From: a virus | Direction: 5' to 3' (one strand) | Length of the DNA stretch: 41,208 nt | Virus record (IMG/VR): IMGVR_UViG_3300005535_000011 | In this document: in pieces, positions 3,880-29,876 of the stretch | Position numbering within the stretch: the stretch's first letter is position 1 | How the letters are laid out: every line of letters starts with the position of its first letter | Position numbers and translations under genes: made by a program | Notes under the pieces: generated by a model | Databases searched by the model: none | What the model was told of the DNA's origin: nothing | What the model saw: the letters and a program-made list of their open reading frames with translations, nothing else

Positions 3880-5090
3880 GCAATACGGCATATCCGGGGG
3901 CTATTGATAGTCCAACTAATCCGTCCACAAATGACACGTTGGCAACCGTTCCACATCACACGCAACACGGACTTGTAAACGATGCGGTCGTGGCCATAGA
4001 AACTAAGCTTGGTACTGGCTCATCTGGTCAGACGCCTAGTAATGGCGCCTATCTTGTGGGCAACGGTTCGGGCGCTACGCAATGGGTAACTACCCTCACG
4101 AGTCCTAGTATTACAACATCACTTTTAGACCTAAATAGCAAAACCTGGATAGGACAGAGCGCAGCCGGTGCAAGTGCCGTGAATTATCCACTGCTTGGAA
4201 ACTCGACGACAGGAAATGCGGTTACTTACGGGGCCGCCGGAACGGATAGCAACATTAACACAAATATTGTCCCTAAGGGTTCTGGCAAAGTTCAGGATAA
4301 TGGGTCAAATCTTATTGATTTTCGTTCGAGCTTTTCCAATTTTGTGCAGACTGGCGGCGTATGGACTCAAAACTCTGGACTTGTGGGCTCAATGACGGCA
4401 GCAACGATTTGGATTAATGGTGTCGAATACAGTGTGGCGGCGGTCAGTAATCACACGTTTGGCGCCTCTGTTGATACGTATATCGACTACACCGTCGGAA
4501 CGGGTATTGTTTATACGGCAGTATCCAACAACGCGGCTTCGCCCAGCCTGGCTGCAAATTCGGTGCGGCTCGCTATTGCTGTTTCCGGTGGAGCTTCGCT
4601 CTCATCGTTTAATCAGGGTTCCCTATCGGCTACCGCGCCAACCGTATCGGGTAGCGTGCTTATGGTTTCAGATTCACTCGGCAATTTAATTTATCCGGTC
4701 GTTCCAAACCAAAACCTAATAGGGTATCGCCAGATTACCGCTAACACAAGCGGTTTCACGACCATTGCGGACATTACGGGCCTCTCCGTGCCAGTCAACG
4801 TTCCCGCCGGACGAAACATTGAGGTAAGCGCGCTCGGACACTACAATACAACTGTTTCAAATGACACCATGGCTTTTGTCATACGGGAGGGTTCCACGTC
4901 CCTGCAAGACGACACCGAGGGTACGATTGGTACGTCGCCCAATTTTGGATTCAGAGTTGCACAACCGTTATCTCCTTCCGCCGGTGTTCATACGTATAAG
5001 CTTTCGGCTCAACGGCTCTTCGGTAGTGGAACGGATATTATCGTCGCTAGCAGCACCCAGCCTGCATACATAAAGGTGAATCTCGTATGA
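3876..5090 (+). CDS. tail fibre protein (404 aa from ATG 3876)
   Basis: The N-terminal motif HHTQHGLVNDAVVAIETKLG (H-x2-H ... IE-x-KLG) is a common phage tail-fibre N-terminal signature. The ORF track begins at TTG 3858; ATG 3876 forms an ATGA overlap with the upstream stop. Confidence 0.65.
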   Translation: MSNTAYPGAIDSPTNPSTNDTLATVPHHTQHGLVNDAVVAIETKLGTGSSGQTPSNGAYLVGNGSGATQWVTTLTSPSITTSLLDLNSKTWIGQSAAGASAVNYPLLGNSTTGNAVTYGAAGTDSNINTNIVPKGSGKVQDNGSNLIDFRSSFSNFVQTGGVWTQNSGLVGSMTAATIWINGVEYSVAAVSNHTFGASVDTYIDYTVGTGIVYTAVSNNAASPSLAANSVRLAIAVSGGASLSSFNQGSLSATAPTVSGSVLMVSDSLGNLIYPVVPNQNLIGYRQITANTSGFTTIADITGLSVPVNVPAGRNIEVSALGHYNTTVSNDTMAFVIREGSTSLQDDTEGTIGTSPNFGFRVAQPLSPSAGVHTYKLSAQRLFGSGTDIIVASSTQPAYIKVNLV

Positions 5091-6070: not shown

Positions 6071-7603
6071 ATGAATCCGCAAATGACGTTCGTACCACCG
6101 TCGCCTACCGACCAGCAGGGAGATGAAGAAGCCAAGCAATGGGTCATAGACCAGTTCTATGGCGGTATTTCTGATGCTGAAAAACAGATCGTCCGAACAA
6201 CTTATTTACTCGAAAAGCAATACCAGTTTTATTTCGCTCAAAACGGCGACATTCTGAACGACGCGGGTTGGTTTACGATCAATCGTTCTACGGTTCTCGA
6301 TTCGCCTACTGGCATGATTACCGCCCTGCCCAAATGGATAGTGAGTGGTCAGCCTTATACGTCTAACATTTATATTTACTGCGCCGATGGTAAAATGTTT
6401 TCGCGGGACGCGAACGGTCAATACAAGTTTTTATTTCAAGCGCAGGATTCCCAAGGCAACGGATTGGCGCAGTGGCTTGGATACCTATACTACACAACCA
6501 ACTCGAGCGTAGGCATTTACGGGCCGGTTAGCTCGCCCAATCCTGCGACCCGTAATGATTCGTACCTCACCCAAGGATTTAATAATACGGCGCTTACCGG
6601 TCTGGCCCCGATTAATACAGACCTTCCTTTTTTATCAATCGGTCACGGAAATAACTTAGGTAAGTTTGACGGTACGAACTGGACGCCCAACCAACTGACC
6701 ATTCCAAACGGAAGCTACATACGATCTATGGACACGGCGAACAACATGCTATCCATAGCCACGGCATCAGGACAAGGGACACTTAGCAAAAGCGTAGGGT
6801 ATATATTTTTCTGGGATGGCGCGAACTATACGTACAATAACTGGGTGCGAGCCGACGCTGGTATCGACGTAGTTCTTAGTAATAAAAACCGGCTATTAAG
6901 CGTGGTGGGGGCAAATAATGCCCTATATACAGACACTTCCCCTTTTCAGAGCTTTCAACGCTTCCCTAAGCTTCGTACGTCAGATCGTATACAAGTATTG
7001 CCCGGCTCTGCGACTAATTATAATGGCGTGGCGCTTTTCGGTGTAGCAAATACAACAACTTCTTCCACATTGCAACAAGGAATATACCATTGGGGGAATC
7101 GGTGTGACGCATACCCGGAGGGTCTTAATCTTGATTACACGATTTCGACCGGCAACACAACAAACATAAGCATCGGTGCCACCTATTCTACTGGCCAGCA
7201 ATTATTCATTGGCTGGCAGGACAACAACACCGGAACGTACGGAGTAGATATCGTAAGTGGTAGTAATCCTTACTACAATTCGGCGTTTATCGAGGGGCTA
7301 GTTATCGACGACATGCGCCCGGTTGACGACAAGAATGGGCTCACCATTAAGTGCTCTCACCTCCCCCTGCGCGCCGGTGAGGGTATTCAGCTTGCTTTTA
7401 AGGTTAATCGTGGCAGCTACGTGCTTTCTACTACTAATAACGTTGTCGGGTCGGTATACACCAAATTCCCTATCATTGGAGATTACGCGCAGTTTAAAGA
7501 AATACAGGCCAAGGCAATTTTGAGTTCGACGGGCGCTACGTCGCCGACCCTAACAACGCTCGGCGTAGCATACATGCCGCAGTTAACACAGAGCCAATAC
7601 TAG
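6071..7603 (+). CDS. virion-module protein, function unknown (510 aa)
   Basis: AAGG RBS. Long ORF in the structural block with beta-rich composition. Confidence 0.55.
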   Translation: MNPQMTFVPPSPTDQQGDEEAKQWVIDQFYGGISDAEKQIVRTTYLLEKQYQFYFAQNGDILNDAGWFTINRSTVLDSPTGMITALPKWIVSGQPYTSNIYIYCADGKMFSRDANGQYKFLFQAQDSQGNGLAQWLGYLYYTTNSSVGIYGPVSSPNPATRNDSYLTQGFNNTALTGLAPINTDLPFLSIGHGNNLGKFDGTNWTPNQLTIPNGSYIRSMDTANNMLSIATASGQGTLSKSVGYIFFWDGANYTYNNWVRADAGIDVVLSNKNRLLSVVGANNALYTDTSPFQSFQRFPKLRTSDRIQVLPGSATNYNGVALFGVANTTTSSTLQQGIYHWGNRCDAYPEGLNLDYTISTGNTTNISIGATYSTGQQLFIGWQDNNTGTYGVDIVSGSNPYYNSAFIEGLVIDDMRPVDDKNGLTIKCSHLPLRAGEGIQLAFKVNRGSYVLSTTNNVVGSVYTKFPIIGDYAQFKEIQAKAILSSTGATSPTLTTLGVAYMPQLTQSQY

Positions 7604-13717: not shown

Positions 13718-13931
13718 TGTATAGCTTGTCCTTAACCGCTGAATGTGTGAAAAGATAGTGTTTGTGACAGGTGGGACACTCCAAATAAGTATCCTCGGCC
13801 TTACTAAGCTCCAGGTTGATATTATGACAAGGAAGTTGAACCGTATAATGCTTCTGTTTTTCGCGCTGGTTATAGAACTCGTGAAAACGCTGCTTTATTA
13901 GGTCGGCATCGGTCAGCATTGAGTACGTCAT
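13710..13931 (-). CDS. hypothetical Cys/His-containing small protein (73 aa)
   Basis: ATGA-coupled to the groEL stop. Contains CH..(17)..CPTCH, a possible zinc ribbon. Confidence 0.55.
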   Translation of the reverse strand: MTYSMLTDADLIKQRFHEFYNQREKQKHYTVQLPCHNINLELSKAEDTYLECPTCHKHYLFTHSAVKDKLYNE

Positions 13932-15580
13932 ACCACGCTTGCTTCGTCGGTCTTCTCTTCGTCAGCAATAATCACACCAGAGGTAAGCAGGCTCATGGCC
14001 GCAGATGTGGCATTTTGAAGTGCTGAAATAGGTACTTTGACCGGGTCAATGACCCCGGAAGATATAAGCTCTTTGATAGTACCGTCTATTACGTCAACTC
14101 CGAGTGTGGAGCGCTCGCTCTCTTTGGGCCAGCTATAAGTTGCCTGCAAGAGGCGTTCAAGCATCTGCCCTGGTTCAAGGCCGCTGTTTTCCATGAGAGT
14201 TTTAAAAGGCCACTGCATTGCCTTTATCACAAGCTTATATCCGGCCACCACTTCTTCGGAGCCACTAACTTCGCCAAGGTGCTTCTCGAGTTCCCAGGAG
14301 GCCCGTAGTAGCGGTGTTTCGCCACCCGCAACAATACCCAACTCGTTAGCCGCCTTAATGGCACCTACAGCGTCAATCGCGCGCTCCTTTAGCTCTTTGG
14401 CCTCACCTTCACCGCGAGCACCCACGTTGATGATCGCAATACCTGAAGTTAGCTTGGCTATCCGTTCTTGCAAACGCTCAACTTCAAATTCAGACACGTT
14501 TTCTTTCTTAATCCGAGACTTGAGCAAATCGACACGTTTTTGGATATCGTCAGGATGGCCACCACCATTTACGATAGTCGTACTATCTTTGGAAGCGACG
14601 ACCTTTTGGGCGTGTCCAATATCCTTTTTGGTGAGGCCGCCTTCTTCGCCTACTTCTAGTGTACGTCCTGCGGCCCTAGATATGAACTGGCCGCCTACCG
14701 AGATAGCAATGTCTTCGAGACGTTCCTGTTGTTCGTCCCCAAAACTGGGTGCGCGTACAGCCAATAGATGTAGGCCTTTCATTTTATTGTGCAACAATAC
14801 CGCCAAGGCAACTTCTTTAACGTCCGGAGAAATAATAACGAGGTTGTCGTTTATGTCGAGTTCCATCATTGCCTCGAGTACCTTTTGGATGTCCGAACCG
14901 CTCGATAGGGTGTAATCGGTAACGAGTACGTTGGCGTTATCCACAGCCGCCTCATCAAATTCAGGATTGGTTAAAAAGTACCGGCTCAGGTAACCTTGGT
15001 CAACTTCCATACCGTCCTTGTATTCGGAATAGATGTAGTTTTGCTTGCTTTCCTCAACCGCGATAACAGCATCGTTACCGAGCTTGTCGAAGGCCTTGGC
15101 AACTTCGCCGCCAACCTTATCGTTTTGCGATGCAATGTTTGCCACTTCTAACTGTTGTTTGTTGGTCTTAATCGGTGTGGCGGCGCCTCTAAGGTACTCA
15201 ACAACCTGCTCCACGGCTTTCTCTACGCCACGGCGTAACATTTGAGCGTTATGTCCGGCCGCGACAAGCTTGCGACCCTCGGTAAATAGTGAGTTAGTAA
15301 GAATAGTGGCGGTGGTCGTGCCGTCGCCCGCCTCATCATTTGTCTGTTTAGCGGCCTCTTTGACGATTTCTTGCGCAGCTGCCACAAATGGGTCTTTGGG
15401 GTCGAGTTCCTTCGCAACGGTTACGCCATCGTGTACGACCCCGGGGGTTCCGAAAGGTCGTTTGAAGATTACGTTATGAGCGCGTGGTCCAAGGGTCGCG
15501 CCTACGGCTCGTTTCGCCTCTTCAACACCCTCTTTAATCTTTGCGTACGCATCTTCTTCAAATAATACTATCTTACTCAT
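13928..15580 (-). CDS. groEL: chaperonin GroEL (Cpn60), phage-encoded (550 aa)
   Basis: The translation is collinear with bacterial GroEL: TLGPRAHNV, the ATP-site motif EAGDGTTTATIL, IVAGGETPLLR and SALQNATSAAMSLLT. It lacks the C-terminal GGM tail (ends ..DEEKTDEASVV). Confidence 0.92.
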   Translation of the reverse strand: MSKIVLFEEDAYAKIKEGVEEAKRAVGATLGPRAHNVIFKRPFGTPGVVHDGVTVAKELDPKDPFVAAAQEIVKEAAKQTNDEAGDGTTTATILTNSLFTEGRKLVAAGHNAQMLRRGVEKAVEQVVEYLRGAATPIKTNKQQLEVANIASQNDKVGGEVAKAFDKLGNDAVIAVEESKQNYIYSEYKDGMEVDQGYLSRYFLTNPEFDEAAVDNANVLVTDYTLSSGSDIQKVLEAMMELDINDNLVIISPDVKEVALAVLLHNKMKGLHLLAVRAPSFGDEQQERLEDIAISVGGQFISRAAGRTLEVGEEGGLTKKDIGHAQKVVASKDSTTIVNGGGHPDDIQKRVDLLKSRIKKENVSEFEVERLQERIAKLTSGIAIINVGARGEGEAKELKERAIDAVGAIKAANELGIVAGGETPLLRASWELEKHLGEVSGSEEVVAGYKLVIKAMQWPFKTLMENSGLEPGQMLERLLQATYSWPKESERSTLGVDVIDGTIKELISSGVIDPVKVPISALQNATSAAMSLLTSGVIIADEEKTDEASVV

Positions 15581-16137: not shown

Positions 16138-16426
16138 CGGCTTCTTCTACCTTAAAGAGCAGGTTTTCAAAATGAACAGCGATGTACTTTTTGACGCCCA
16201 GGGTCATGACAAAGTGGTTGTACTTCTTATAGGCGATCACGTCGTTAACCTTTGGGACGTGTTTTGCATCGTATGGCATCTTTGAGAGCGGGTCGCCAAC
16301 GGCGACGACTTTACCCACCTCGGGCGCATCTTCGGTGTCACCTTTTGGCATCTCGAAATTGCCAATCTTTTTATTAAGCGTGTGTGGCTTTAATATTACA
16401 TACCCCGGAAGAGGATTAAGGCGCAT
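16130..16426 (-). CDS. groES: co-chaperonin GroES (Cpn10)-like (98 aa)
   Basis: GroES pattern: MRLNPLPGYVILKP (M-x-[IL]-x-PL-x-x-x-V-[IL]-x-K), GKVVAVG, VNDVIAYKKY. First gene of the chaperonin operon, preceded by TGtTATAAT. Confidence 0.75.
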   Translation of the reverse strand: MRLNPLPGYVILKPHTLNKKIGNFEMPKGDTEDAPEVGKVVAVGDPLSKMPYDAKHVPKVNDVIAYKKYNHFVMTLGVKKYIAVHFENLLFKVEEADE

Positions 16427-16451
16427 ATTACAATTCCCTTACTATAAATAT

Positions 16452-16460
16452 ATTATAACA
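16452..16460 (-). promoter_or_regulatory. Extended -10 promoter TGtTATAAT (minus strand) for groES operon
   Basis: About 25 nt upstream of ATG 16426 and just downstream of terminator 16493..16515. Confidence 0.5.
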
Positions 16461-16492
16461 AAACAAAAGCGTTTTGGCAATTTACAGCTACG

Positions 16493-16515
16493 AAAAAAGC
16501 CCCACGTATGGAGCT
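16493..16515 (-). terminator. Rho-independent terminator (minus strand)
   Basis: Minus-sense AGCUCCA-uacg-UGGGGCU followed by UUUUUU. The single non-Watson-Crick pair is G.U only on the minus strand (C/A on plus). Confidence 0.6.
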
Positions 16516-16539
16516 TCTCTCGGTTGACGGCCTGGTGTC

Positions 16540-16548
16540 ATTATATCA
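16540..16548 (-). promoter_or_regulatory. Extended -10 promoter TGaTATAAT (minus strand), only about 25 nt upstream of a terminator hairpin (about 40 nt to its U-tract)
   Basis: Read on the reverse complement: CACTTGTGATATAATGACACC. Confidence 0.4.
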
Positions 16549-16562
16549 CAAGTGCCGTGCAG

Positions 16563-16615
16563 ACGCCGGAGTAAAGCAGCCGATCATTCATAATTAACAG
16601 ACCTTACTCCGGCGT
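16563..16615. repeat. Hairpin with perfect 12-bp stem (ACGCCGGAGTAA / TTACTCCGGCGT), 29-nt loop
   Basis: Read directly. It lies between two of the tandem leftward promoters. Confidence 0.8.
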
Positions 16616-16633
16616 TTACACACCACTAAGTCG

Positions 16634-16642
16634 ATTATATCA
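16634..16642 (-). promoter_or_regulatory. Extended -10 promoter TGaTATAAT (minus strand)
   Basis: Reverse complement GCGATTATTTGATATAATCGAC. It shares GATTATTTGrTATAAT with the promoter at 16800. Confidence 0.4.
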
Positions 16643-16799
16643 AATAATCGCTGCTGGCAAAATACCCCGTAAACTAGAAAATGCCTGCATTACCTCTGGA
16701 AGAAGCAATTACAAGCATTTTTCTAAAACGCTGAACACGTTTATAGCTGTTTATACTCGGATAAGCAGCTATTTTTAATACCCGAAAGTATATGTGTGT

Positions 16800-16808
16800 A
16801 TTATACCA
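16800..16808 (-). promoter_or_regulatory. Extended -10 promoter TGgTATAAT (minus strand)
   Basis: Reverse complement GGGGATTATTTGGTATAATACAC. The -35 region overlaps a GTTTTAGAAA repeat. Confidence 0.4.
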
Positions 16809-16883
16809 AATAATCCCCACTTTCTAAAACAAGCTATCTTGAAGCGTAATTGCTGCAAGTTTTAGAGTTGTGAGGGGATTATT
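16809..16883. repeat. Composite 75-bp dyad: outer AATAATCCCC/GGGGATTATT, inner TCTAAAAC/GTTTTAGA
   Basis: Outer arms are 16809..16818 / 16874..16883 and inner arms 16823..16830 / 16859..16866. A third TCTAAAAC lies at 16722..16729. The dyad overlaps the -35 region of the promoter at 16800. Confidence 0.7.
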
Positions 16884-16929
16884 CTGTCGTTCCGTCGCAA
16901 GTGTATTTTATGCGCCTGCGCCGTATTCG

Positions 16930-17340
16930 TCAATTCTCAACATGTGCTTCCTTCTGTGGCTGCCCGCAGTGTCGCTTGTTATATTCCCGAAGTTCATCAA
17001 AGTCAGAAACCGCCTTAAGCTTGTCGTATCTAGTGCCGCCGAGCCTATGGAACAAGACATACCTAAAGTTGTCTAGGTCTTTGGCAGCGTTACTGGCACC
17101 CTCCAAGTTCATTACGTGTGTCATTTGTTTTTTCATGTAGTATGCCTCGCACATATATTCTACTAAAACGTCATTGTCCAGTTCTTCGACTTCTTGGATT
17201 GTCATAGTTTTATCATACCACTTACCACACTCTCCACCACATACGCCAAACCAGCACGGAGCCTTTGGGGTGGATGGTCTCAATGCGCAGAAAGTATCTG
17301 GTACCAAGTAGCGTACGTTTTGAGGTGAGTACGCGGCCAC
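16930..17340 (-). CDS. hypothetical protein (136 aa from GTG 17340; alternatively 92 aa from ATG 17205)
   Basis: The ORF track start is GTG and overlaps the upstream ORF by 119 nt. An internal ATG at 17205 would remove the overlap. The N-terminal part is Cys-rich (CWFGVCGGEC). Confidence 0.5.
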   Translation of the reverse strand: MAAYSPQNVRYLVPDTFCALRPSTPKAPCWFGVCGGECGKWYDKTMTIQEVEELDNDVLVEYMCEAYYMKKQMTHVMNLEGASNAAKDLDNFRYVLFHRLGGTRYDKLKAVSDFDELREYNKRHCGQPQKEAHVEN

Positions 17341-19065: not shown

Positions 19066-19358
19066 TGTTTTACCTCGCTATTGGTAGGAGCGATGTCTTG
19101 AAGAAAAACTTTTAGAGTTCTGCCATCATCCTGCAAGTTGTAGGTGACATTAAATGGCTGGTCTTCCCCAATGGCAATTTCACTGGTTTTTCCGTCTGGT
19201 AGAAATTTAATTACCTCAAAACGGTTAACCACGTCTTTTCGGTTCTCCCTATCCTGCTTAATGAGCGCCATAATAGCGTCCAGAAGCGAGGGGGCACACA
19301 AACCATGCTCTGCTGTAACCTGAAACTCAATCTGCTTACGTAATCCTTCATCATCCAT
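19062..19358 (-). CDS. hypothetical protein (98 aa from ATG 19358; track start 19400)
   Basis: ATG 19358 (MDDEGL..) has GGAG about 10 nt upstream and overlaps the methyltransferase stop by 8 nt. ATG 19400 would overlap by 50 nt. Confidence 0.5.
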   Translation of the reverse strand: MDDEGLRKQIEFQVTAEHGLCAPSLLDAIMALIKQDRENRKDVVNRFEVIKFLPDGKTSEIAIGEDQPFNVTYNLQDDGRTLKVFLQDIAPTNSEVKQ

Positions 19359-19932
19359 TGGTTTTTTCTCCAAATACGGTTTGGGGCGTAAGTTCCACAT
19401 CCTGTGCTAACTCATTACCCCAATTATCCCAGCCACCTGATTCTTGGCGTGCAAATAGTTCAACACGCGGTACATCGCCCATGAGCCTTACTATTCTGTC
19501 ACGCACTTCCCCAGGTTTTTTTGAATGTTCCTCGATTGGCGACATGACAACTTGTGCCACAGAAGCATCGCAACGCTTAGGATTCCCCTTAACGCCAAGC
19601 AAGCATATTTCTGCGTTAGTTCGCGTCCACTGTCCCATGCCGAAGAAGGGTGTACCTGATTTTTTATTTGTCTTTACCCACGTGAAGGCTACGGTTTTAT
19701 ACTCAAACCCCCAGGCCTTTAGGGTGTACAAGGCTTCAGGCAGCATAGGATAGGTCGCCCACAGGAAAAGGGTTGCGTCATCTGCACTAATTGAACTAAC
19801 GGGCAAGTTGTATATGTCAACACTACGCATTGTTTTGTATTGTTGATTTTGTGCTCTACCGCCGTGCAAGCTTTTAAAAACAGTGTAGTTCCATGGCGGG
19901 TCAGCATAGATTATTTGATATTTTTTATTCAT
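19351..19932 (-). CDS. DNA N6-adenine methyltransferase, MT-A70 family (193 aa)
   Basis: Catalytic DPPW motif in IIYADPPWNY near the N-terminus. The size and downstream conserved blocks (LFLWAT, GxGxWTR) fit the phage MT-A70-like methylases. Confidence 0.8.
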   Translation of the reverse strand: MNKKYQIIYADPPWNYTVFKSLHGGRAQNQQYKTMRSVDIYNLPVSSISADDATLFLWATYPMLPEALYTLKAWGFEYKTVAFTWVKTNKKSGTPFFGMGQWTRTNAEICLLGVKGNPKRCDASVAQVVMSPIEEHSKKPGEVRDRIVRLMGDVPRVELFARQESGGWDNWGNELAQDVELTPQTVFGEKTNG

Positions 19933-25614: not shown

Positions 25615-26007
25615 TTACTTGGCTATCAGGTCGTTGTGTAGCTGAGCTACGATCTGATAAATCGTCCGTGCCTCTTCAATGGTTTTGATCTCGCCATTAT
25701 GGTATTGGTAGCCTATCCGATTGCTTACGTAAGAGTAGGCTTGCCCACGTTTGATCTTGCCGTTTTTCCACAACGGGTCAAGCAAGGCATGTATCTTCTT
25801 GCGAGCTTCCAATATCTCCCTGGTTGCTATACAGCCAAGCGGCTTAGTTGGATTGTTGGTTTTGTGATGACAACCAACATAGTTGCCGCATCCGTCACAT
25901 TTCCAAAAAGGTAGGTCATACAAATCTGGTCTGTGCGGATACCGTTCTTTCCCGTCAGTAAGACGAGCCTCGACGTCCACCTTACAACCGGTGCAATATA
26001 TCTGCAC
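25615..26007 (-). CDS. zinc-finger phage protein (130 aa), DUF3268-like from memory
   Basis: CTGC..(31)..CDGC followed by YVGCHH and a conserved PLG..A....R..IH..LD.LW block. Confidence 0.55.
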   Translation of the reverse strand: MQIYCTGCKVDVEARLTDGKERYPHRPDLYDLPFWKCDGCGNYVGCHHKTNNPTKPLGCIATREILEARKKIHALLDPLWKNGKIKRGQAYSYVSNRIGYQYHNGEIKTIEEARTIYQIVAQLHNDLIAK

Positions 26008-26018
26008 GTATTTACCTC

Positions 26019-26225
26019 CTATACAAAAATCTTCACAACCTTGTCATACGCTATGTATGAAACAAGGCCGATAATAGCTAGGGTCTTTAAACCTGAGCTG
26101 TGCTTACAAGCTACAAACCACAGAATCCGTGTCGTGGACATCTCCGAAATAATCCTGATGCCTGATTTAGTGGGTTTGCTTAGTTCTTTTGAATCTTCGT
26201 ACTTTGATTGATTTTTTACTAACAT
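26019..26225 (-). CDS. hypothetical protein (68 aa), first ORF after the structured noncoding region
   Basis: AAAGGA RBS 8 nt upstream. A hydrophobic segment sits near the C-terminus. Confidence 0.45.
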   Translation of the reverse strand: MLVKNQSKYEDSKELSKPTKSGIRIISEMSTTRILWFVACKHSSGLKTLAIIGLVSYIAYDKVVKIFV

Positions 26226-26328
26226 AGTAAAATCCTTTCTTATTTGTTGTGTTTGTTTCCGAGTAGATTGTTAAGGTTCTTCCAGGGCATCGGGCAAGTC
26301 TCGCACAAGCCCGATGTTGTCCCCAGAG

Positions 26329-26456
26329 CAGGCAGGTCAGCCGTTGGATTTTCCGGGGCTCAGATACGAATTGCACGTATCCGGACGCCGACTAGTCTTT
26401 TAGCGTCTCATTTCCCTTTGTTTGCCATTGGAATCATCCAACGGCTGACCTGCCTG
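26329..26456. other. Long hairpin element: perfect 21-bp stem enclosing 86 nt with two sub-hairpins
   Basis: 26329..26349 CAGGCAGGTCAGCCGTTGGAT pairs with 26436..26456 ATCCAACGGCTGACCTGCCTG. Inner hairpins are GATACG/CGTATC (26363..26381) and GACGC/GCGTC (26384..26407). Confidence 0.8.
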
Positions 26457-26461
26457 GTATT

Positions 26462-26615
26462 TTGGCTAGCCTATTCCCCGCAGTGTGCCGATATTGCGTA
26501 CGCGCCATCAGTTAGGCGTCGGTCTGTTAAAGGTGTAGGGTACCAGCCGGAACCTATCACCTCGCAGGAGTTGACTGTGAAGCCGTACCCTCACCACGGG
26601 GAATAGGCTAGCCAA
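26462..26615. other. Long hairpin element: perfect 19-bp stem enclosing 116 nt
   Basis: 26462..26480 TTGGCTAGCCTATTCCCCG pairs with 26597..26615 CGGGGAATAGGCTAGCCAA. Inner helix AGGGTAC/GTACCCT (26537..26543 / 26585..26591) is extended by GGTG/CACC. Confidence 0.8.
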
Positions 26616-26718
26616 GTGTCGTCTCCACCACACCCATAAATCCTCGCGCTACTGAGTTCGTATCCCGTAGGCTCTACGACGCTTCACTTGAGGAGGAGGC
26701 GGGTTTCCCCGGTGTTGA

Positions 26719-26742
26719 GTTCAAACGCTCATTTGACCCCAA
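26719..26742. repeat. 24-bp inverted repeat, left copy (GTTCAAACGCTCATTTGACCCCAA)
   Basis: Perfect reverse complement of 28412..28435. It contains the internal dyad TCAAA-N6-TTTGA and starts 3 nt after the tandem terminators. Confidence 0.95.
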
Positions 26743-26745
26743 CAT

Positions 26746-26774
26746 AAGAAAACCCCCACGCTTTGACGTGAGGG
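26746..26774 (-). terminator. Rho-independent terminator (minus strand), second of a tandem pair
   Basis: Minus-sense CCCUCACG-ucaaag-CGUGGGGG followed by UUUUCUU. One G.U pair is valid only on the minus strand. Confidence 0.6.
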
Positions 26775-26793
26775 ACACTGACGCCAAGCATAT

Positions 26794-26821
26794 AAAAACC
26801 TCCTACCGTTTCAGTAGGAGG
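26794..26821 (-). terminator. Rho-independent terminator (minus strand) directly after the tRNA 3'-half
   Basis: Perfect 8-bp stem CCTCCTAC-tgaaacg-GTAGGAGG followed by TTTTT, 13 nt after the ..CCA end. Confidence 0.7.
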
Positions 26822-26834
26822 TGAGAGTTATGCT

Positions 26835-26880
26835 TGGCTGGGGTGGAGGGATTCGAACCCCCGAATGCAAGGTCTGAATC
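26835..26880 (-). other. tRNA 3'-half-like segment = candidate attP core
   Basis: Minus-sense ..GAUUCAGACCUUGCAUUC-GGGGG-UUCGAAU-CCCUC-CACCCCA-G-CCA. This gives a canonical T-arm (UUCGAAU loop), a 7-nt acceptor 3' strand, a discriminator G and an encoded CCA. There is no matching acceptor 5' strand or D-arm upstream, so it is a fragment. Confidence 0.7.
26858..26874. repeat. 17-bp inverted repeat, left arm (CCCCCGAATGCAAGGTC), inside the tRNA fragment
   Basis: Perfect reverse complement of 27018..27034. Confidence 0.9.
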
Positions 26881-27017
26881 TTTTTACCCTTCCGGCAACT
26901 CTTTACGCCTACTGGGACGTTGAGTGGATGGAGCAAATTGTCAAAGTTCTAAGTGAAGAATATCATCACCACGCACTAAAATGCAAGTACTTTTTAGTAA
27001 AAGTTATCCACATATAT

Positions 27018-27034
27018 GACCTTGCATTCGGGGG
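27018..27034. repeat. 17-bp inverted repeat, right arm (GACCTTGCATTCGGGGG), 8 nt from the int stop codon
   Basis: Perfect reverse complement of 26858..26874, with a 143-bp AT-rich spacer between the arms. Confidence 0.9.
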
Positions 27035-27042
27035 CCGTAGCC

Positions 27043-27909
27043 CTAATGACTATGATAGCGCATAAACACTTCTTCTTCCCTGTTTTCCAGGTGAGAATAT
27101 ATGTCGCCCGTAACCTGTATGCTGGCGTGATTCATGAGCACCTGAAGAGATTTGAGGCTGCCCCCATTGTAGATAATATCCGATGCATACGAGTGCCGGT
27201 AGACGTGCGGCGTGATGTTCTTGCGGATTCCCGTTACCTCCTCAAGCTCGTGCAATATCTGCTCAACTCTGGATACGGTTATGCGTTTTCCCTGTGACGA
27301 AGTGAAGAGGGGGCGTAGCTGATCGTGACGCGTGGCTAGATAAGCATCAATATGCGCCTGAACGGTGGTATTAAAATAGAGCCTTGACTTGTTTCCGGCC
27401 TTGTCCTCGACCCAGAGCTCCTTATTGCCGTGTTCCGTAGCTGGTGCGTATTCGTAATACTCCCGGTCTACGCTCAGGAGCGCGCTGATACGGCTTCCGG
27501 TGTGGAATAAGGCGCTTACAATAGCCTTGTCGCGAGGGTTTCTGGTTGCAGCGACGGTCTTTTCTATTTCCTCGACTGTTAGATATGTATGATTGGTCTT
27601 GCGTTTGCGGCGCGGAACATCAATCGAGTCAGGATTAATTACTGCCCTGCCCTGCTGTCTGCAATAACGAAGCACTTTGCATAAGCATTTGACGCACGAG
27701 TAGATATAATTTGCGGACTTTCCCTCTTGCTGCAAAATAACTTTCCAGCGTATAACGGCGTCTTCGGTTAGGAGTTCTATAGGCGCATCGCCTATATTAC
27801 GTATTAATGAATTGCACGCCGTTCGATAGTTCGCCTGCGTTTTGGGTGCAAAATTATTAGCCTGTAGCCCATAAAGGTCATACAGGCGAAACGCCTCACT
27901 AATTGTCAT
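27043..27909 (-). CDS. int: tyrosine recombinase / integrase, XerC/D-like (288 aa)
   Basis: Catalytic residues readable: R in HTGSRISAL, H-x-x-R in HVYRHSYAS, H in LMNHAS and the nucleophile Y in GDIYSH. The N-terminus resembles a SAM-like core-binding domain. GGGAGA RBS. A tRNA-3'-half attP lies 160 bp downstream. Confidence 0.9.
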   Translation of the reverse strand: MTISEAFRLYDLYGLQANNFAPKTQANYRTACNSLIRNIGDAPIELLTEDAVIRWKVILQQEGKSANYIYSCVKCLCKVLRYCRQQGRAVINPDSIDVPRRKRKTNHTYLTVEEIEKTVAATRNPRDKAIVSALFHTGSRISALLSVDREYYEYAPATEHGNKELWVEDKAGNKSRLYFNTTVQAHIDAYLATRHDQLRPLFTSSQGKRITVSRVEQILHELEEVTGIRKNITPHVYRHSYASDIIYNGGSLKSLQVLMNHASIQVTGDIYSHLENREEEVFMRYHSH

Positions 27910-28220
27910 GATTTCTCCCGTCTTGTGTTCGCTATTGAGTATATTCGCCTTATATTTCCCCTTTCAACATGATCGATATCACGGTGTTTGTTTAGATTGT
28001 TTTTAGGTTCCTGAGTTATTATGTATTTTTGTGCACAGCAGTGCTCCCCGCTTTAGGTGGAGCGGAACGGTACCCTCTGACCAACACAACATGAAGCAAC
28101 GTCTCTAAGGCGCATCATCTACTGTAGCCATGACCCTAGCTTTTTCGGGTCTACGTCTTTTTTGGTAAGGAGTGCGTACAACTCCGGCCACAGCAATCGT
28201 CTTTTGGCCCCTTCCTTAGT

Positions 28221-28298
28221 ATCACTTCTACCCTCGATTACAGTGCGGGTAGGGACAACCTAAGCTCGGTTGTCCGTTGGCACTGTAATCGAAGTGAT
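28221..28298. other. 78-nt three-helix hairpin in the int-HTH intergenic region
   Basis: ATCACT/AGTGAT (6 bp), TCGATTACAGTGC/GCACTGTAATCGA (13 bp perfect, 28234..28246 / 28280..28292) and GGACAACC/GGTTGTCC (8 bp, 7-nt loop). Confidence 0.75.
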
Positions 28299-28374
28299 GG
28301 TTACCCTGTTCGATGTATTGTGAGCAGGACTATCGCTAGCCAATAACGTGTTGTGTAAGTGTTTAATAGAGATC

Positions 28375-28419
28375 AAAAAAGACCCCAAAAAAGACAATTT
28401 CACATGTCTTATTGGGGTC
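28375..28419 (-). terminator. Strong Rho-independent terminator (minus strand) in the int-HTH intergenic region
   Basis: Minus-sense GACCCCAA-u-AAGACA-ugugaaau-UGUCUU-uu-UUGGGGUC followed by UUUUUU (28380..28375). 14 bp in total. Confidence 0.7.
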
Positions 28420-28435
28420 AAATGAGCGTTTGAAC
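28412..28435. repeat. 24-bp inverted repeat, right copy (TTGGGGTCAAATGAGCGTTTGAAC)
   Basis: Perfect reverse complement of 26719..26742. It overlaps the 5' arm (minus sense) of terminator 28375..28419. Confidence 0.95.
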
Positions 28436-28441
28436 ATTCTT

Positions 28442-28450
28442 ATGATATCA
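28442..28450 (-). promoter_or_regulatory. Extended -10-like promoter TGaTATCAT (minus strand) for a candidate small RNA
   Basis: Palindromic TGATATCA. On the minus strand the hexamer ends about 6 nt before position 28435/28436, the start of the 24-bp repeat. Confidence 0.35.
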
Positions 28451-28493
28451 ATCCGGAAGTATTATGTCAAGTGTAGTGTTTTGTCACTGCTTA

Positions 28494-29028: not shown

Positions 29029-29457
29029 ATGGTATGCGCAAGATGCAATCAAAAAGCCTCGCACATATTCTCTGATGAACGAGGTGAGCGGTGCGAAAAC
29101 TGTTCGTCTATGTCTATCGTCAGCAAGAATAAGACGGATGGCATACTCACTCGTACCTCATGGCGCATAAGACGCCAGCAATCCAGGCACGAGGGAGATA
29201 TGGTACTTCCCCACTCCTACGATAAGACAAAGCACCGCGAGGTTGTAAATCCTGACTTCGTTAAGCTCTACCCCGACAAGGTTAAAGATTTCTTCAGTGG
29301 CGACCAGCTAAAAAAGGATGGCTACAGTAAAATGCCTGACGCTATTGCTAAGAACGAAGCCAAGCGAGAGAGACAGCGCGACGAGTTCAAAGCCGATACC
29401 ATTTATTCCGGAAGCTCAGAAAAGGCGATGGCCAAGTTTTTGAAGGATGAGGCATGA
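29029..29457 (+). CDS. zinc-ribbon protein (142 aa from ATG 29029)
   Basis: CARC..(16)..CENC near the N-terminus. ATG 29029 lies 1 nt after the upstream stop. The track start at 28993 overlaps the upstream gene. Confidence 0.55.
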   Translation: MVCARCNQKASHIFSDERGERCENCSSMSIVSKNKTDGILTRTSWRIRRQQSRHEGDMVLPHSYDKTKHREVVNPDFVKLYPDKVKDFFSGDQLKKDGYSKMPDAIAKNEAKRERQRDEFKADTIYSGSSEKAMAKFLKDEA

Positions 29458-29876
29458 TCTTACAAGACCCACACGATGCCTTGCACGCCAGATGCGAGCC
29501 CGTCACCTTCCCCGAGGCAAAGCGTATCGCTAAAACATTGCGCGACGCTTATCAGGAAGTATCCAAAAAGGCCAAAGACACCCTCGTAGTAGGATTGGCC
29601 GCGCCCCAGATTGGCATTCCAAAGCGTATGTTTGCTATGTATGGCATAGTGTTTATCAACCCCAGCTTTACGGCGCATGGCCCGAAACTGGTTGATAGCG
29701 CTGAGGGATGCTTAAGCCTGCCCGATACCTACCACCCAAAGCGCTATGACACGATTTTGGCTACGTGGACAGATGAAGCACGTAGATTACGACGCGAACT
29801 ATTGGAAGGTAGGGATGCGGTTGTGTTCCAACATGAATTTGACCATTTGGAGGGAAGATTGTGCAATGAGTTATAG
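29454..29876 (+). CDS. def: peptide deformylase (140 aa)
   Basis: All three PDF motifs are present: VGLAAPQIG (GxGxAAxQ), EGCLS and QHEFDHLEG (HExxH). Confidence 0.88.
   Translation: MILQDPHDALHARCEPVTFPEAKRIAKTLRDAYQEVSKKAKDTLVVGLAAPQIGIPKRMFAMYGIVFINPSFTAHGPKLVDSAEGCLSLPDTYHPKRYDTILATWTDEARRLRRELLEGRDAVVFQHEFDHLEGRLCNEL

Follow-up and report, generated by a model that had tools for sequence, protein, structure and literature searches.

A candidate four-helix-junction RNA motif in the putative early leader of uncultured soil phages

The DNA analyzed here is a stretch of 41,208 nucleotides from IMG/VR record IMGVR_UViG_3300005535_000011, hereafter called the window. It represents a complete-looking temperate phage of about 41 kb from rhizosphere metagenomes. 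Identical sequence is present in contig Ga0070683_100000189 of JGI assembly 3300005329 and in at least five other rhizosphere assemblies. No DNA similarity to 50,697 deposited phages was detected, and the closest large terminases belong to an uncultured spring phage (47% identity) and a TM7 phage (38%). Along the minus strand, the region is arranged in the order of a promoter, a structured non-coding stretch, the integrase gene, a tRNA-like fragment of the probable attP, two terminator-like hairpins, three hairpin domains named D2, D1, and D0, and the early genes. The tyrosine integrase (int; 27043-27909, minus strand; 288 aa) matches PF00589 (E = 4e-19) and phrog_1. The first leftward early gene, ORF68 (26019-26225, minus strand), encodes a 68-aa protein and has AAGAAAGGA ahead of it; in related phages, the corresponding zone is marked by its homologues. 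The second is a DUF3268 zinc-finger gene (25615-26007; Pfam PF11672, E = 2e-16), followed by genes for a Sak4-like ATPase, an HNH nuclease, and others, all on the minus strand. Among the scanned ORFs, which included most of the larger ones, no reverse transcriptase, Ro/TROVE protein, or transposase was found, and no N- or Q-like protein was recognisable.

The tRNA-like 3' fragment (26835-26879, minus strand) contains a T arm, the 3' strand of the acceptor, and CCA, and resembles tRNA-Gln. It is kept beside int in the related loci L032, L033, L034, L036, and L047, and other assemblies break at this fragment, which is probably the attP core. ARAGORN found no tRNA or tmRNA gene and no complete tRNA in the window; the fragment gives a partial tmRNA match of 8.8 bits. 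A perfect 17-bp inverted repeat (26858-26874 / 27018-27034, 143 nt apart; listed on the minus strand) connects the fragment with sequence just past the int stop codon, and an 18-bp repeat of other sequence occupies the same place in L033. Just downstream of the fragment and upstream of D2 on the minus strand, two tandem intrinsic-terminator-like hairpins were located at 26743-26822, one at 26822 to 26798 followed by UUUUAUAU and the other at 26774 to 26753 followed by UUUUCUUAU. The strongest sigma-70-like promoter of the region (28442-28470, minus strand; TTGACA-17-TATCAT with a TG extension, 11/12) is directed towards int. At about +7 of this promoter lies the right copy of a 24-mer (28412-28435, minus strand), which overlaps a terminator-like hairpin. 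Its perfect inverted partner, the left copy, is found at 26719-26742 (TTGGGGTCAAATGAGCGTTTGAAC, minus strand), and the same layout is shown by an unrelated 23-mer in L032.

Two back-to-back long-stem domains lie between the terminator-like hairpins and the early genes. The domain D1 (26329-26456), placed on the minus strand only by its adjacency to D2, has a perfect 21-bp stem around a branched interior. The repeat search recovered its arms exactly where a first-pass annotation of the sequence had put them (26329-26349 / 26436-26456), 100% complementary over 21 nt with a spacer of 86 nt. The perfect 19-bp stem claimed for D2 (26462-26615, minus strand) was likewise confirmed by an exact-repeat scan, at 26462-26480 / 26597-26615 with a spacer of 116 nt. 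In the repeat search the D2 arms extend to 24 nt (26462-26485 / 26592-26615) with 92% complementarity, and the closing stem becomes 24 bp on the minus strand once the two mismatches are counted as G.U pairs. The gap of 5 nt between D1 and D2 was also verified. The 8-bp hairpin reported to precede them, CATCGGGC/GCCCGATG at about 26288-26316, is present as D0 (minus strand). No further structure intervenes between D0 and the A-rich leader of the first early gene, and no U-tract follows D0 on the minus strand.

More structure is found here than chance allows, as the first-pass annotation had suspected. In 41 kb and with a loop of at most 300 nt, 4e-5 perfect 19-bp and 3e-6 perfect 21-bp inverted repeats are expected. 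The exact-repeat scan found only three such perfect repeats of at least 17 bp in the window, all within 26329-27034, and four were found in about 245 kb of related phage loci. The fold of 26230-26760 has a z-score of -7.5 on the plus strand and -9.5 on the minus strand against dinucleotide shuffles. In a 200-nt scan, 26250-27050 was among the most structured stretches of the window, together with 28100-28450 and 16450-16850. The structure of the long hairpins is real. The inner helices that had been proposed fared unequally. GATACG/CGTATC and GACGC/GCGTC belong to the minimum-energy fold of D1, and GGTG/CACC forms the base of P3, a helix of D2 that is supported by homologues (see below). AGGGTAC/GTACCCT is present in the window's own minimum-energy fold but not in the homologues, which have no complementary AGGGTAC and pair their conserved GTACCC block in another helix, P2.

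The region is non-coding. Both of the ORFs listed earlier exist (26244-26606 on the plus strand and 26167-26376 on the minus strand), and the suspicion that they are not genuine genes was upheld. The 120-aa plus-strand ORF has no Pfam or PHROG match, and the gene callers of six independent assemblies called no gene across the region. The reading frame is not kept in the homologues of D2 either: the RRSVKG and SQELT blocks share one frame in the window and fall in different frames in L038 and L043. Because the conserved blocks fall in different reading frames, the D2 element is considered non-coding.

The motif matches no Rfam family. The first-pass annotation had named ROOL, GOLLD, HEARO, and raiA as families to be checked, without asserting membership, and the check returned no family match. 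A cmscan search of the whole window against Rfam 15 at gathering thresholds gave 0 matches, and 25900-27150 at E <= 10 gave four noise matches, none of them to ROOL, GOLLD, HEARO, raiA, or OLE. Rfam found nothing in the D2 homologue loci, and across the window and 34 related loci the scans produced no relevant match. No Y RNA, tRNA, or tmRNA model matched. Inspection of D1 and D2 by eye revealed no fit to a k-turn, a k-junction, a hammerhead core, a T-loop, or an attC layout. An integron attC site was rejected: GTTGGAT/ATCCAAC lies at the inner, not the outer, ends of the D1 arms, and the stems are perfect. The integrase of 288 aa gave generic phage-integrase PF00589 matches only.

Homologues were found for D2. 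A profile search of the fetched loci detected it in L038 (2581-2700, E = 1.8e-9), a phage contig of 43 kb with an integrase that shares only 35% identity with that of the window. With a gapped pattern made from the conserved blocks, two further copies were found in metagenomes: L044 (1774-1893), which is 92% identical to L038, and L043 (572-724), which represents a third lineage. Four blocks are invariant on the minus strand (GAGGGUACGG, GUCAACUCCUGCGAGG, CCUUUAACAGACCGACG, and UCGGCAC). Among the homologues, pairing is retained although the sequence and length of the closing stem and of the hairpin tips differ wholly. A drift of the arms out of pairing in relatives had been named as a reason to abandon the structure; the opposite was observed, as the D2 arms differ completely and still pair.

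The conserved fold is a junction of four helices on the minus strand. In window coordinates, P1 pairs 26615-26592 with 26485-26462 (24 bp including 2 G.U), P2 pairs 26590-26582 with 26575-26568, P3 pairs 26567-26558 with 26535-26524, and P4 pairs 26522-26515 with 26506-26488. P1 counts 24 bp in the window, against 9 bp in L038 and 8 bp in L043. In the alignment of n = 4 sequences, all 147 of the 147 pair cells of P1-P4 are standard on the minus strand. Nine pairs are changed on both sides, and 0 of 500 shuffles were as good; with four sequences from three lineages, the alignment is too small for a formal covariation test. RNAalifold independently predicts P1-P4 on the minus strand. In the window, the conserved fold of D2 (-75.0 kcal/mol) lies within 0.8 kcal/mol of the minimum (-75.8 kcal/mol), and the two folds differ. 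GCAA tetraloops cap P2 in two lineages. Judged from this alignment, D2 is conserved with covariation, and a factor-binding role or a tertiary fold is probable for its invariant core.

The comparison also separates the two strands. When the same pairs are read on the plus strand, only 129 of the 147 cells are standard, versus 147 of 147 on the minus strand. The remaining 18 cells are G.U on the minus strand and A.C mismatches on the plus strand or in DNA. Two G.U pairs of P2 are invariant on the minus strand, and a C-to-U change in L043 keeps its pairing only as U.G. The two apparent mismatches in the 24-nt arms of the window are tandem G.U pairs on the minus strand, and P1 of the window is a continuous 24-bp helix only as minus-strand RNA. 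RNAalifold gives 33 pairs on the minus strand versus 27 on the plus strand, and the fully conserved P2 is recovered only on the minus strand. Between L038 and L044, two substitutions fall inside D2, both in loops; in the neighbouring closing stems, two compensatory double changes and two wobble-to-Watson-Crick changes fit the minus strand. The minus strand of D2 is also co-oriented with the flanking early genes in all three lineages. In this strand test the pair set was drawn on the minus strand, and the plus strand folds well too, with some G.U pairs of its own. The preference of D2 for the minus strand is supported, though indirectly, and this comparative evidence favours a structure at the RNA level over one at the DNA level.

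The conserved part of the motif is D2 only, about 120 nt, and the flanking domains share no common sequence. In each lineage, a further long-stem domain follows D2 within a few nucleotides, and in L038 and L043 the array of domains ends in a stem and then a U-tract just before the next gene. The position of D2 relative to genes varies between phages. In the window it precedes the 68-aa gene, in L043 it falls between the homologue of this gene (273-482) and a Sak4-like gene, and in L038 it precedes an Acb5-like anti-defence gene. The 68-aa gene homologue of L043 is therefore upstream of D2, not downstream. 

The motif is rare. A covariance model of the D2 alignment recovered nothing beyond the known copies when run on 240 kb of related loci, and with filters off it found no second D2-like copy in the window and six of these loci (84 kb); a 14.5-bit match within a gene, at 6465-6579, was dismissed as noise. 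D1 is not a diverged D2, because the filters-off model finds no second copy in the window. D1 has no homologue in any fetched locus, and its arm is absent from IMG/VR, the only database searched with this arm. The arms and three core patterns had no match in IMG/VR, and two core patterns had none in 185,579 species genomes. Pattern matches in L039-L042, L045/L046, and L049 lie inside coding regions and were attributed to chance. The neighbourhoods of 21 homologues of the DUF3268 gene in IMG/VR share no common non-coding DNA. No relatives of the integrase were found in IMG/VR. Its closest relatives in a large protein collection, L032-L037, have neither D1 nor D2, and only the distant L038 has D2. 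Similarly, the ORF68 relatives L047, L048, and L050-L055 have neither domain. From these comparisons, D2 appears to be a rare four-helix-junction RNA motif that had not been described before and occurs in three or more soil-phage lineages.

The relatives by integrase or 68-aa protein that lack D1 and D2 have other long-stem domains in the same non-coding zone. A long stem of 17 bp is found in L050 and one of 19 bp in L054, and L051 has two back-to-back long-stem domains. One domain of L051 holds a tRNA T-arm, and the next stretch is tRNA-like on the sense strand (30.6 bits). L055 and L032 share a hairpin family with three compensatory changes, in which the stem sequence is kept at two different genomic positions. 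As judged from these loci, this phage group fills the zone of int, attP, and the first early genes with interchangeable structured modules, presumably RNA, and D2 is the module traceable across lineages.

A structured RNA ahead of the early genes is the most likely explanation. The fuller reading, in which 26285-26615 and the sequence on to about 26760 form a non-coding, modular, structured RNA leader on the minus strand of the leftward early operon, is about as probable as all other accounts together. Such a leader would precede the 68-aa gene, the DUF3268 gene, the Sak4-like recombinase, and the genes onwards. D2 would be one copy of a recurrent motif that lies in the sense direction beside early genes, and D1 a lineage-specific neighbour domain. 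Transcription of the leader region is inferred because D0 and the first gene have neither a sigma-70-like promoter nor a terminator between them. A point against the leader is that no sigma-70 promoter was found on the minus strand from 26800 to 26226, which includes the interval between the terminators and D2. In this phage, the closing helices would have lengthened into uninterrupted duplexes of 24 and 21 bp, which may act as double-strand-specific (RNase III-type) processing or stability sites. The cuts would free the early mRNA from read-through of int, attP, and the two terminators, or alternatively would release the folded cores. RNase III cutting at these helices is plausible by analogy in this phage; uninterrupted double-stranded RNA of at least about 20 bp is available in D1 (21 bp) and in D2 (24 bp including 2 G.U, on the minus strand). 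Cleavage cannot be the conserved role of D2, because its homologues close with only 8-9 bp. The D2 core would for this reason more likely bind a fixed partner. Since D1 has no homologue, both its strand and its function are purely inferential. Overall, the evidence supports a structure that is real, formed at the RNA level, and conserved.

Several other explanations were weighed against this leader. The nascent early transcript may contain a cis-acting RNA for processive antitermination or attenuation, in which D2 would modify RNA polymerase or switch folds and thereby allow transcription through terminators and along an early operon of about 13 kb. In three lineages, D2 is found close to where a long co-oriented early operon begins, in one of them between genes, and in the window it is just downstream of two terminators. 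An invariant core would fit a fixed partner such as RNA polymerase, the arrays of L038 and L043 end in the stem and U-tract, and the AGGGTAC/GTACCCT alternative of the window is about equal in energy to the conserved fold. However, the homologues do not keep this alternative pairing, D2 in the window comes after rather than before the two terminators, and no Rfam family is similar; this account is unlikely. The long stems could instead serve as processing stems that release independent folded trans-acting RNAs of about 90-120 nt, for example decoys or mimics directed at host factors or defences, in the manner of Y RNAs or phage tRNA-like RNAs. The tandem modules, each closed by the pairing of its own 5' and 3' ends, would suit such products. 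The equivalent place in L051 holds the T-arm long-stem domain and the tRNA-like gene in the sense direction, and the array of L038 adjoins the Acb5-like anti-defence gene. This account is rather unlikely, as D1 and D2 have no promoter or terminator of their own, no Ro/TROVE protein or reverse transcriptase is encoded among the scanned ORFs, and the Y RNA, tRNA, and tmRNA models do not match.

It is quite improbable that a single large ornate RNA of about 450-550 nt is present, with D2 as its conserved core and the other hairpins as a variable periphery. The contiguous structured stretch is about 480 nt in the window and about 530 nt in L038, it is phage-borne and near a tRNA-derived site, and two lineages have the GCAA tetraloops on P2; the mean length of ROOL is 581 nt, and like GOLLD it frequently occurs near tRNAs and in prophages (PMC5737381). 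Against this stand the restriction of conservation to the 120 nt of D2, the lack of common sequence in the flanking domains, the varying gene position of D2, and the failure of the ROOL and GOLLD models to match even at E <= 10. Each domain also closes on itself, and no long-range pairing between domains was detected in folds of 26230-26760. Selfish or neutral palindromic insertions of MITE or REP type, spread among phages and with transcription merely tolerated, are just as improbable. They would account for perfect and possibly young stems, for a D1 without homologue, for the absence of D2 from the closest relatives by integrase or ORF68, for its differing position among phages, and for the L032/L055 hairpin family, with its stem sequence at two genomic positions. 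However, what the D2 homologues have in common is the interior, whereas their termini are unrelated, the reverse of the MITE pattern. Each phage has a single copy, no target-site duplication is seen in the flanks (CCAGAG/GTATT and GTATT/GTGTCG), the arms and core patterns are missing from the collections searched with them (IMG/VR and, for two core patterns, the 185,579 genomes), and the G.U bias is strand-specific. The weakest of the rivals are the DNA-level readings, whose probability is very small. Here the element would be a cruciform, an arm of attP, an invertible segment, a site of recombination, or a signal for replication or single-strand initiation. Perfect inverted repeats do lie beside a tyrosine recombinase and attP, single-stranded DNA would fold alike, and the short contigs ERZ27252105 and JGI 3300005614, probably from one sample, end at 26440/26441 inside a stem arm. 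The cruciform or recombination feature offered by the first-pass annotation is nevertheless disfavoured: spacers of 86-116 nt are known to disfavour cruciform extrusion, the G.U pairs of one strand are mismatches in DNA, and the six long assemblies are, as assembled sequence, 100% identical over 1101 nt in a single orientation. The attP core and the start of D2 are over 200 nt apart in the window and 1.4 kb apart, with genes between, in L038, and no iterons or AT-rich unwinding block were found.

A speculative extension, itself rather unlikely, is that the whole int-attP-leader region works as an RNA-based switch that senses the integration state by means of the 24-nt long-range complement. 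The promoter at 28470 to 28442 would transcribe the 24-nt sequence, int, attP, and the terminators. Only the transcript of a circular, excised genome would reach the exact complement of the 24-mer (26742 to 26719) and then D2 and D1. The long-range duplex spanning 1.7 kb, together with two helices of about 20 bp, would process or destabilise the int mRNA, and the same duplexes would license the early genes for expression or insulate them. These parts would be physically separated once the phage integrates at attP. In such a switch, D2 would represent a four-way-junction RNA of a new class that binds a factor.

In phages, the decision between lysogeny and lytic growth is governed by structured RNAs of the early leaders; classical examples are lambda nut and sib, HK022 put, and the P1/P4 immunity RNAs. 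To this familiar kind of element, the locus adds a conserved four-helix-junction RNA outside Rfam, which, on comparison of its few representatives, is a solid candidate motif. It also suggests that uncultured soil phages use interchangeable long-stem RNA modules around int, attP, and the first early genes. If these are processing or antitermination devices, they would show how early expression is timed without N- or Q-like proteins recognisable in the scanned ORFs. If the RNAs are released, they could be decoys against host factors.

Among known systems, HK022 put and Bacillus EAR are cis-acting processive antitermination RNAs. Like them, D2 would be a structured RNA acting in cis near the start of, or inside, a long operon, and it has a conserved core. 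In contrast, no similarity in sequence or structure was detected, and the element of the window is downstream of terminators. Bacterial Y RNAs of the YrlA type are also known from phages. The present domains share with them tandem modules of about 100-150 nt, a long stem formed by the module's own ends, and a branched interior. Membership was rejected, however, since no Ro/TROVE domain occurs in the scanned ORFs, D1 and D2 have no T-arm, and Rfam gave no match.

The DUF3268 RNA motif lies upstream of DUF3268 genes and is assumed to be in Rfam. By context, this motif (PMC10573300) and ROOL and GOLLD (PMC5737381) are the closest to the element. The DUF3268 motif is a three-way junction with a k-junction, and its function is not known (PMC10573300, PMC8191799). 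It is a structured RNA named after DUF3268 genes, and such a gene is found two genes downstream of D2 in the window. In contrast, Rfam gave no match in the window, the D2 homologues, or 20 DUF3268-gene loci. D2 is a four-way junction in which tandem sheared G.A pairs could not be placed, and its homologues in L038 and L043 adjoin other genes. Membership in this motif was rejected on the Rfam result and the four-way junction. ROOL and GOLLD are similar in their occurrence in phages or prophages, their proximity to tRNA-related sequence, and their many multi-stem junctions (PMC5737381; PMC12286853). They differ in that neither Rfam model matches the window, and in that the conserved part here is about 120 nt, versus about 580-800 nt, with neighbouring domains that are not conserved.

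The nearest parallels in possible action are of another kind, and here the genome layout is informative. On the minus strand of the window, int (27909-27043) is followed by the tRNA-fragment core (26879-26835) and then by D2 and D1. This agrees with the first-pass expectation that the hairpins would come to lie at the extreme end of the prophage: they stand beside the tRNA-derived attP fragment, at the end that would be far from int after integration. The lambda sib retroregulator and the T7 early-mRNA sites are classical RNase III systems with long double-stranded helices in phage early transcripts. The present element would likewise place long double-stranded helices in a predicted phage early transcript, with terminators adjoining it. 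As with lambda sib, the element of the window is located beyond attP as seen from int, and integration would separate it; this geometry is not true for the D2 homologue of L038. Unlike the simple hairpins of these systems, the stems of the window close branched interiors of 86-116 nt, and D2 has a conserved core and short-stemmed homologues. The element is also upstream of the early genes rather than at a transcript end, and cleavage here is only predicted. By analogy, lambda sib and the T7 RNase III sites would be the closest counterparts in possible mode of action.

The tRNA-like fragment at window 26835-26885, the probable attP core, has counterparts in four related phages found via their integrases (L032, L033, L034, and L038), and all five look similar to tRNA-Gln in its 3' half. 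The anticodon-loop position reads UUCA (anticodon-like UCA) in the window, L032, and L033, and UUUGG (UUG) in L034 and L038. A full tRNA could not be folded from any of the five.

Part of this fragment is joined to the sequence directly 3' of the int stop codon by a third long-range perfect inverted repeat of 17 bp (26858-26874 / 27018-27034), with its arms 143 nt apart. The counterpart in L033 (1901-1918 / 2061-2078) is 18 bp long. Because the repeat is kept there in a different sequence, the pairing co-varies; L032 has no counterpart of it.

A promoter-like sequence, TTGCAT-18-TGaTATTCT, was read by eye between int and the tRNA-like fragment (26957-26986, minus strand). It lies within a block conserved among the relatives, the L033 version being TTGCAT-18-TGaTATTAT, and was not listed by the promoter scan because its -35 element is weak. 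The site faces the leader through the attP core, and thus integration would part this putative promoter from the early operon.

Upstream of int, a non-coding segment of ~500 nt (27910-28410) is also strongly structured (z ~ -3.6, fold scan). It is partly kept in L032 (4311-4772), at 74-84% over three blocks, and in L051 (1989-2072), a relative found via the 68-aa protein of the early operon; Rfam gave no match at gathering thresholds. A further non-coding structured region of ~550 nt is located at 16380-16930 on the minus strand (z = -7.4), where four extended -10 promoter-like motifs (TGnTATAAT) alternate with hairpins and terminator-like stems. This region had no credible match in Rfam.

Long-stem domains are also present in the related phages. 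In L051, such a domain (4213-4345) directly follows the homologue of ORF68, the first gene of the leftward early operon. Its closing stem of ~27 bp, which includes 3 G.U pairs on the sense strand, encloses a tRNA T-arm (GTGGAGTTCGAATCCCAC). Downstream is a 101-nt tRNA-like sequence (4597-4697) scoring 30.6 bits with Rfam tRNA; its D and anticodon regions are oversized, and ARAGORN made no call for it. A second long-stem hairpin family is formed by L032 4439-4561, upstream of int, and L055 92-253, upstream of the ORF68 homologue. The former has a perfect 24-bp stem whose homologues in L055 are the closing stems of a domain. Three compensatory changes are seen between them, and L055 has an additional hairpin inserted.

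Two short contigs overlapping the window, L030 and L031 (ERZ27252105, JGI 3300005614), break off at 26440/26441, within the right arm of the D1 hairpin stem. They probably come from one sample, and their ends may reflect low coverage or an effect that the inverted repeat had on assembly; an inverted variant was not seen. Among the proteins encoded in the window are a GroEL-type chaperonin (13928-15580), a peptide deformylase (29454-29876), and an MT-A70 methyltransferase (19351-19932). A chaperonin is also encoded by L038, together with an Acb5-like protein.

The int-attP module as a whole is flanked by a perfect 24-nt inverted pair (26719-26742 and 28412-28435) with a spacing of 1669 nt. The 28412-28435 copy, located around +7 relative to the strongest promoter (28470->28442), overlaps with a terminator-like hairpin, and the 26719-26742 copy lies directly past the two terminators, beyond attP. 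An equivalent arrangement is found in L032 (integrase 55% identical), with a 23-mer at 4247-4269 and 6151-6173 whose sequence is unrelated to that of the window. Since one read-through transcript would hold both copies as exact complements, the sequence suggests either a DNA-level cassette boundary or a long-range RNA duplex, which would be sib-like or rRNA-stem-like.
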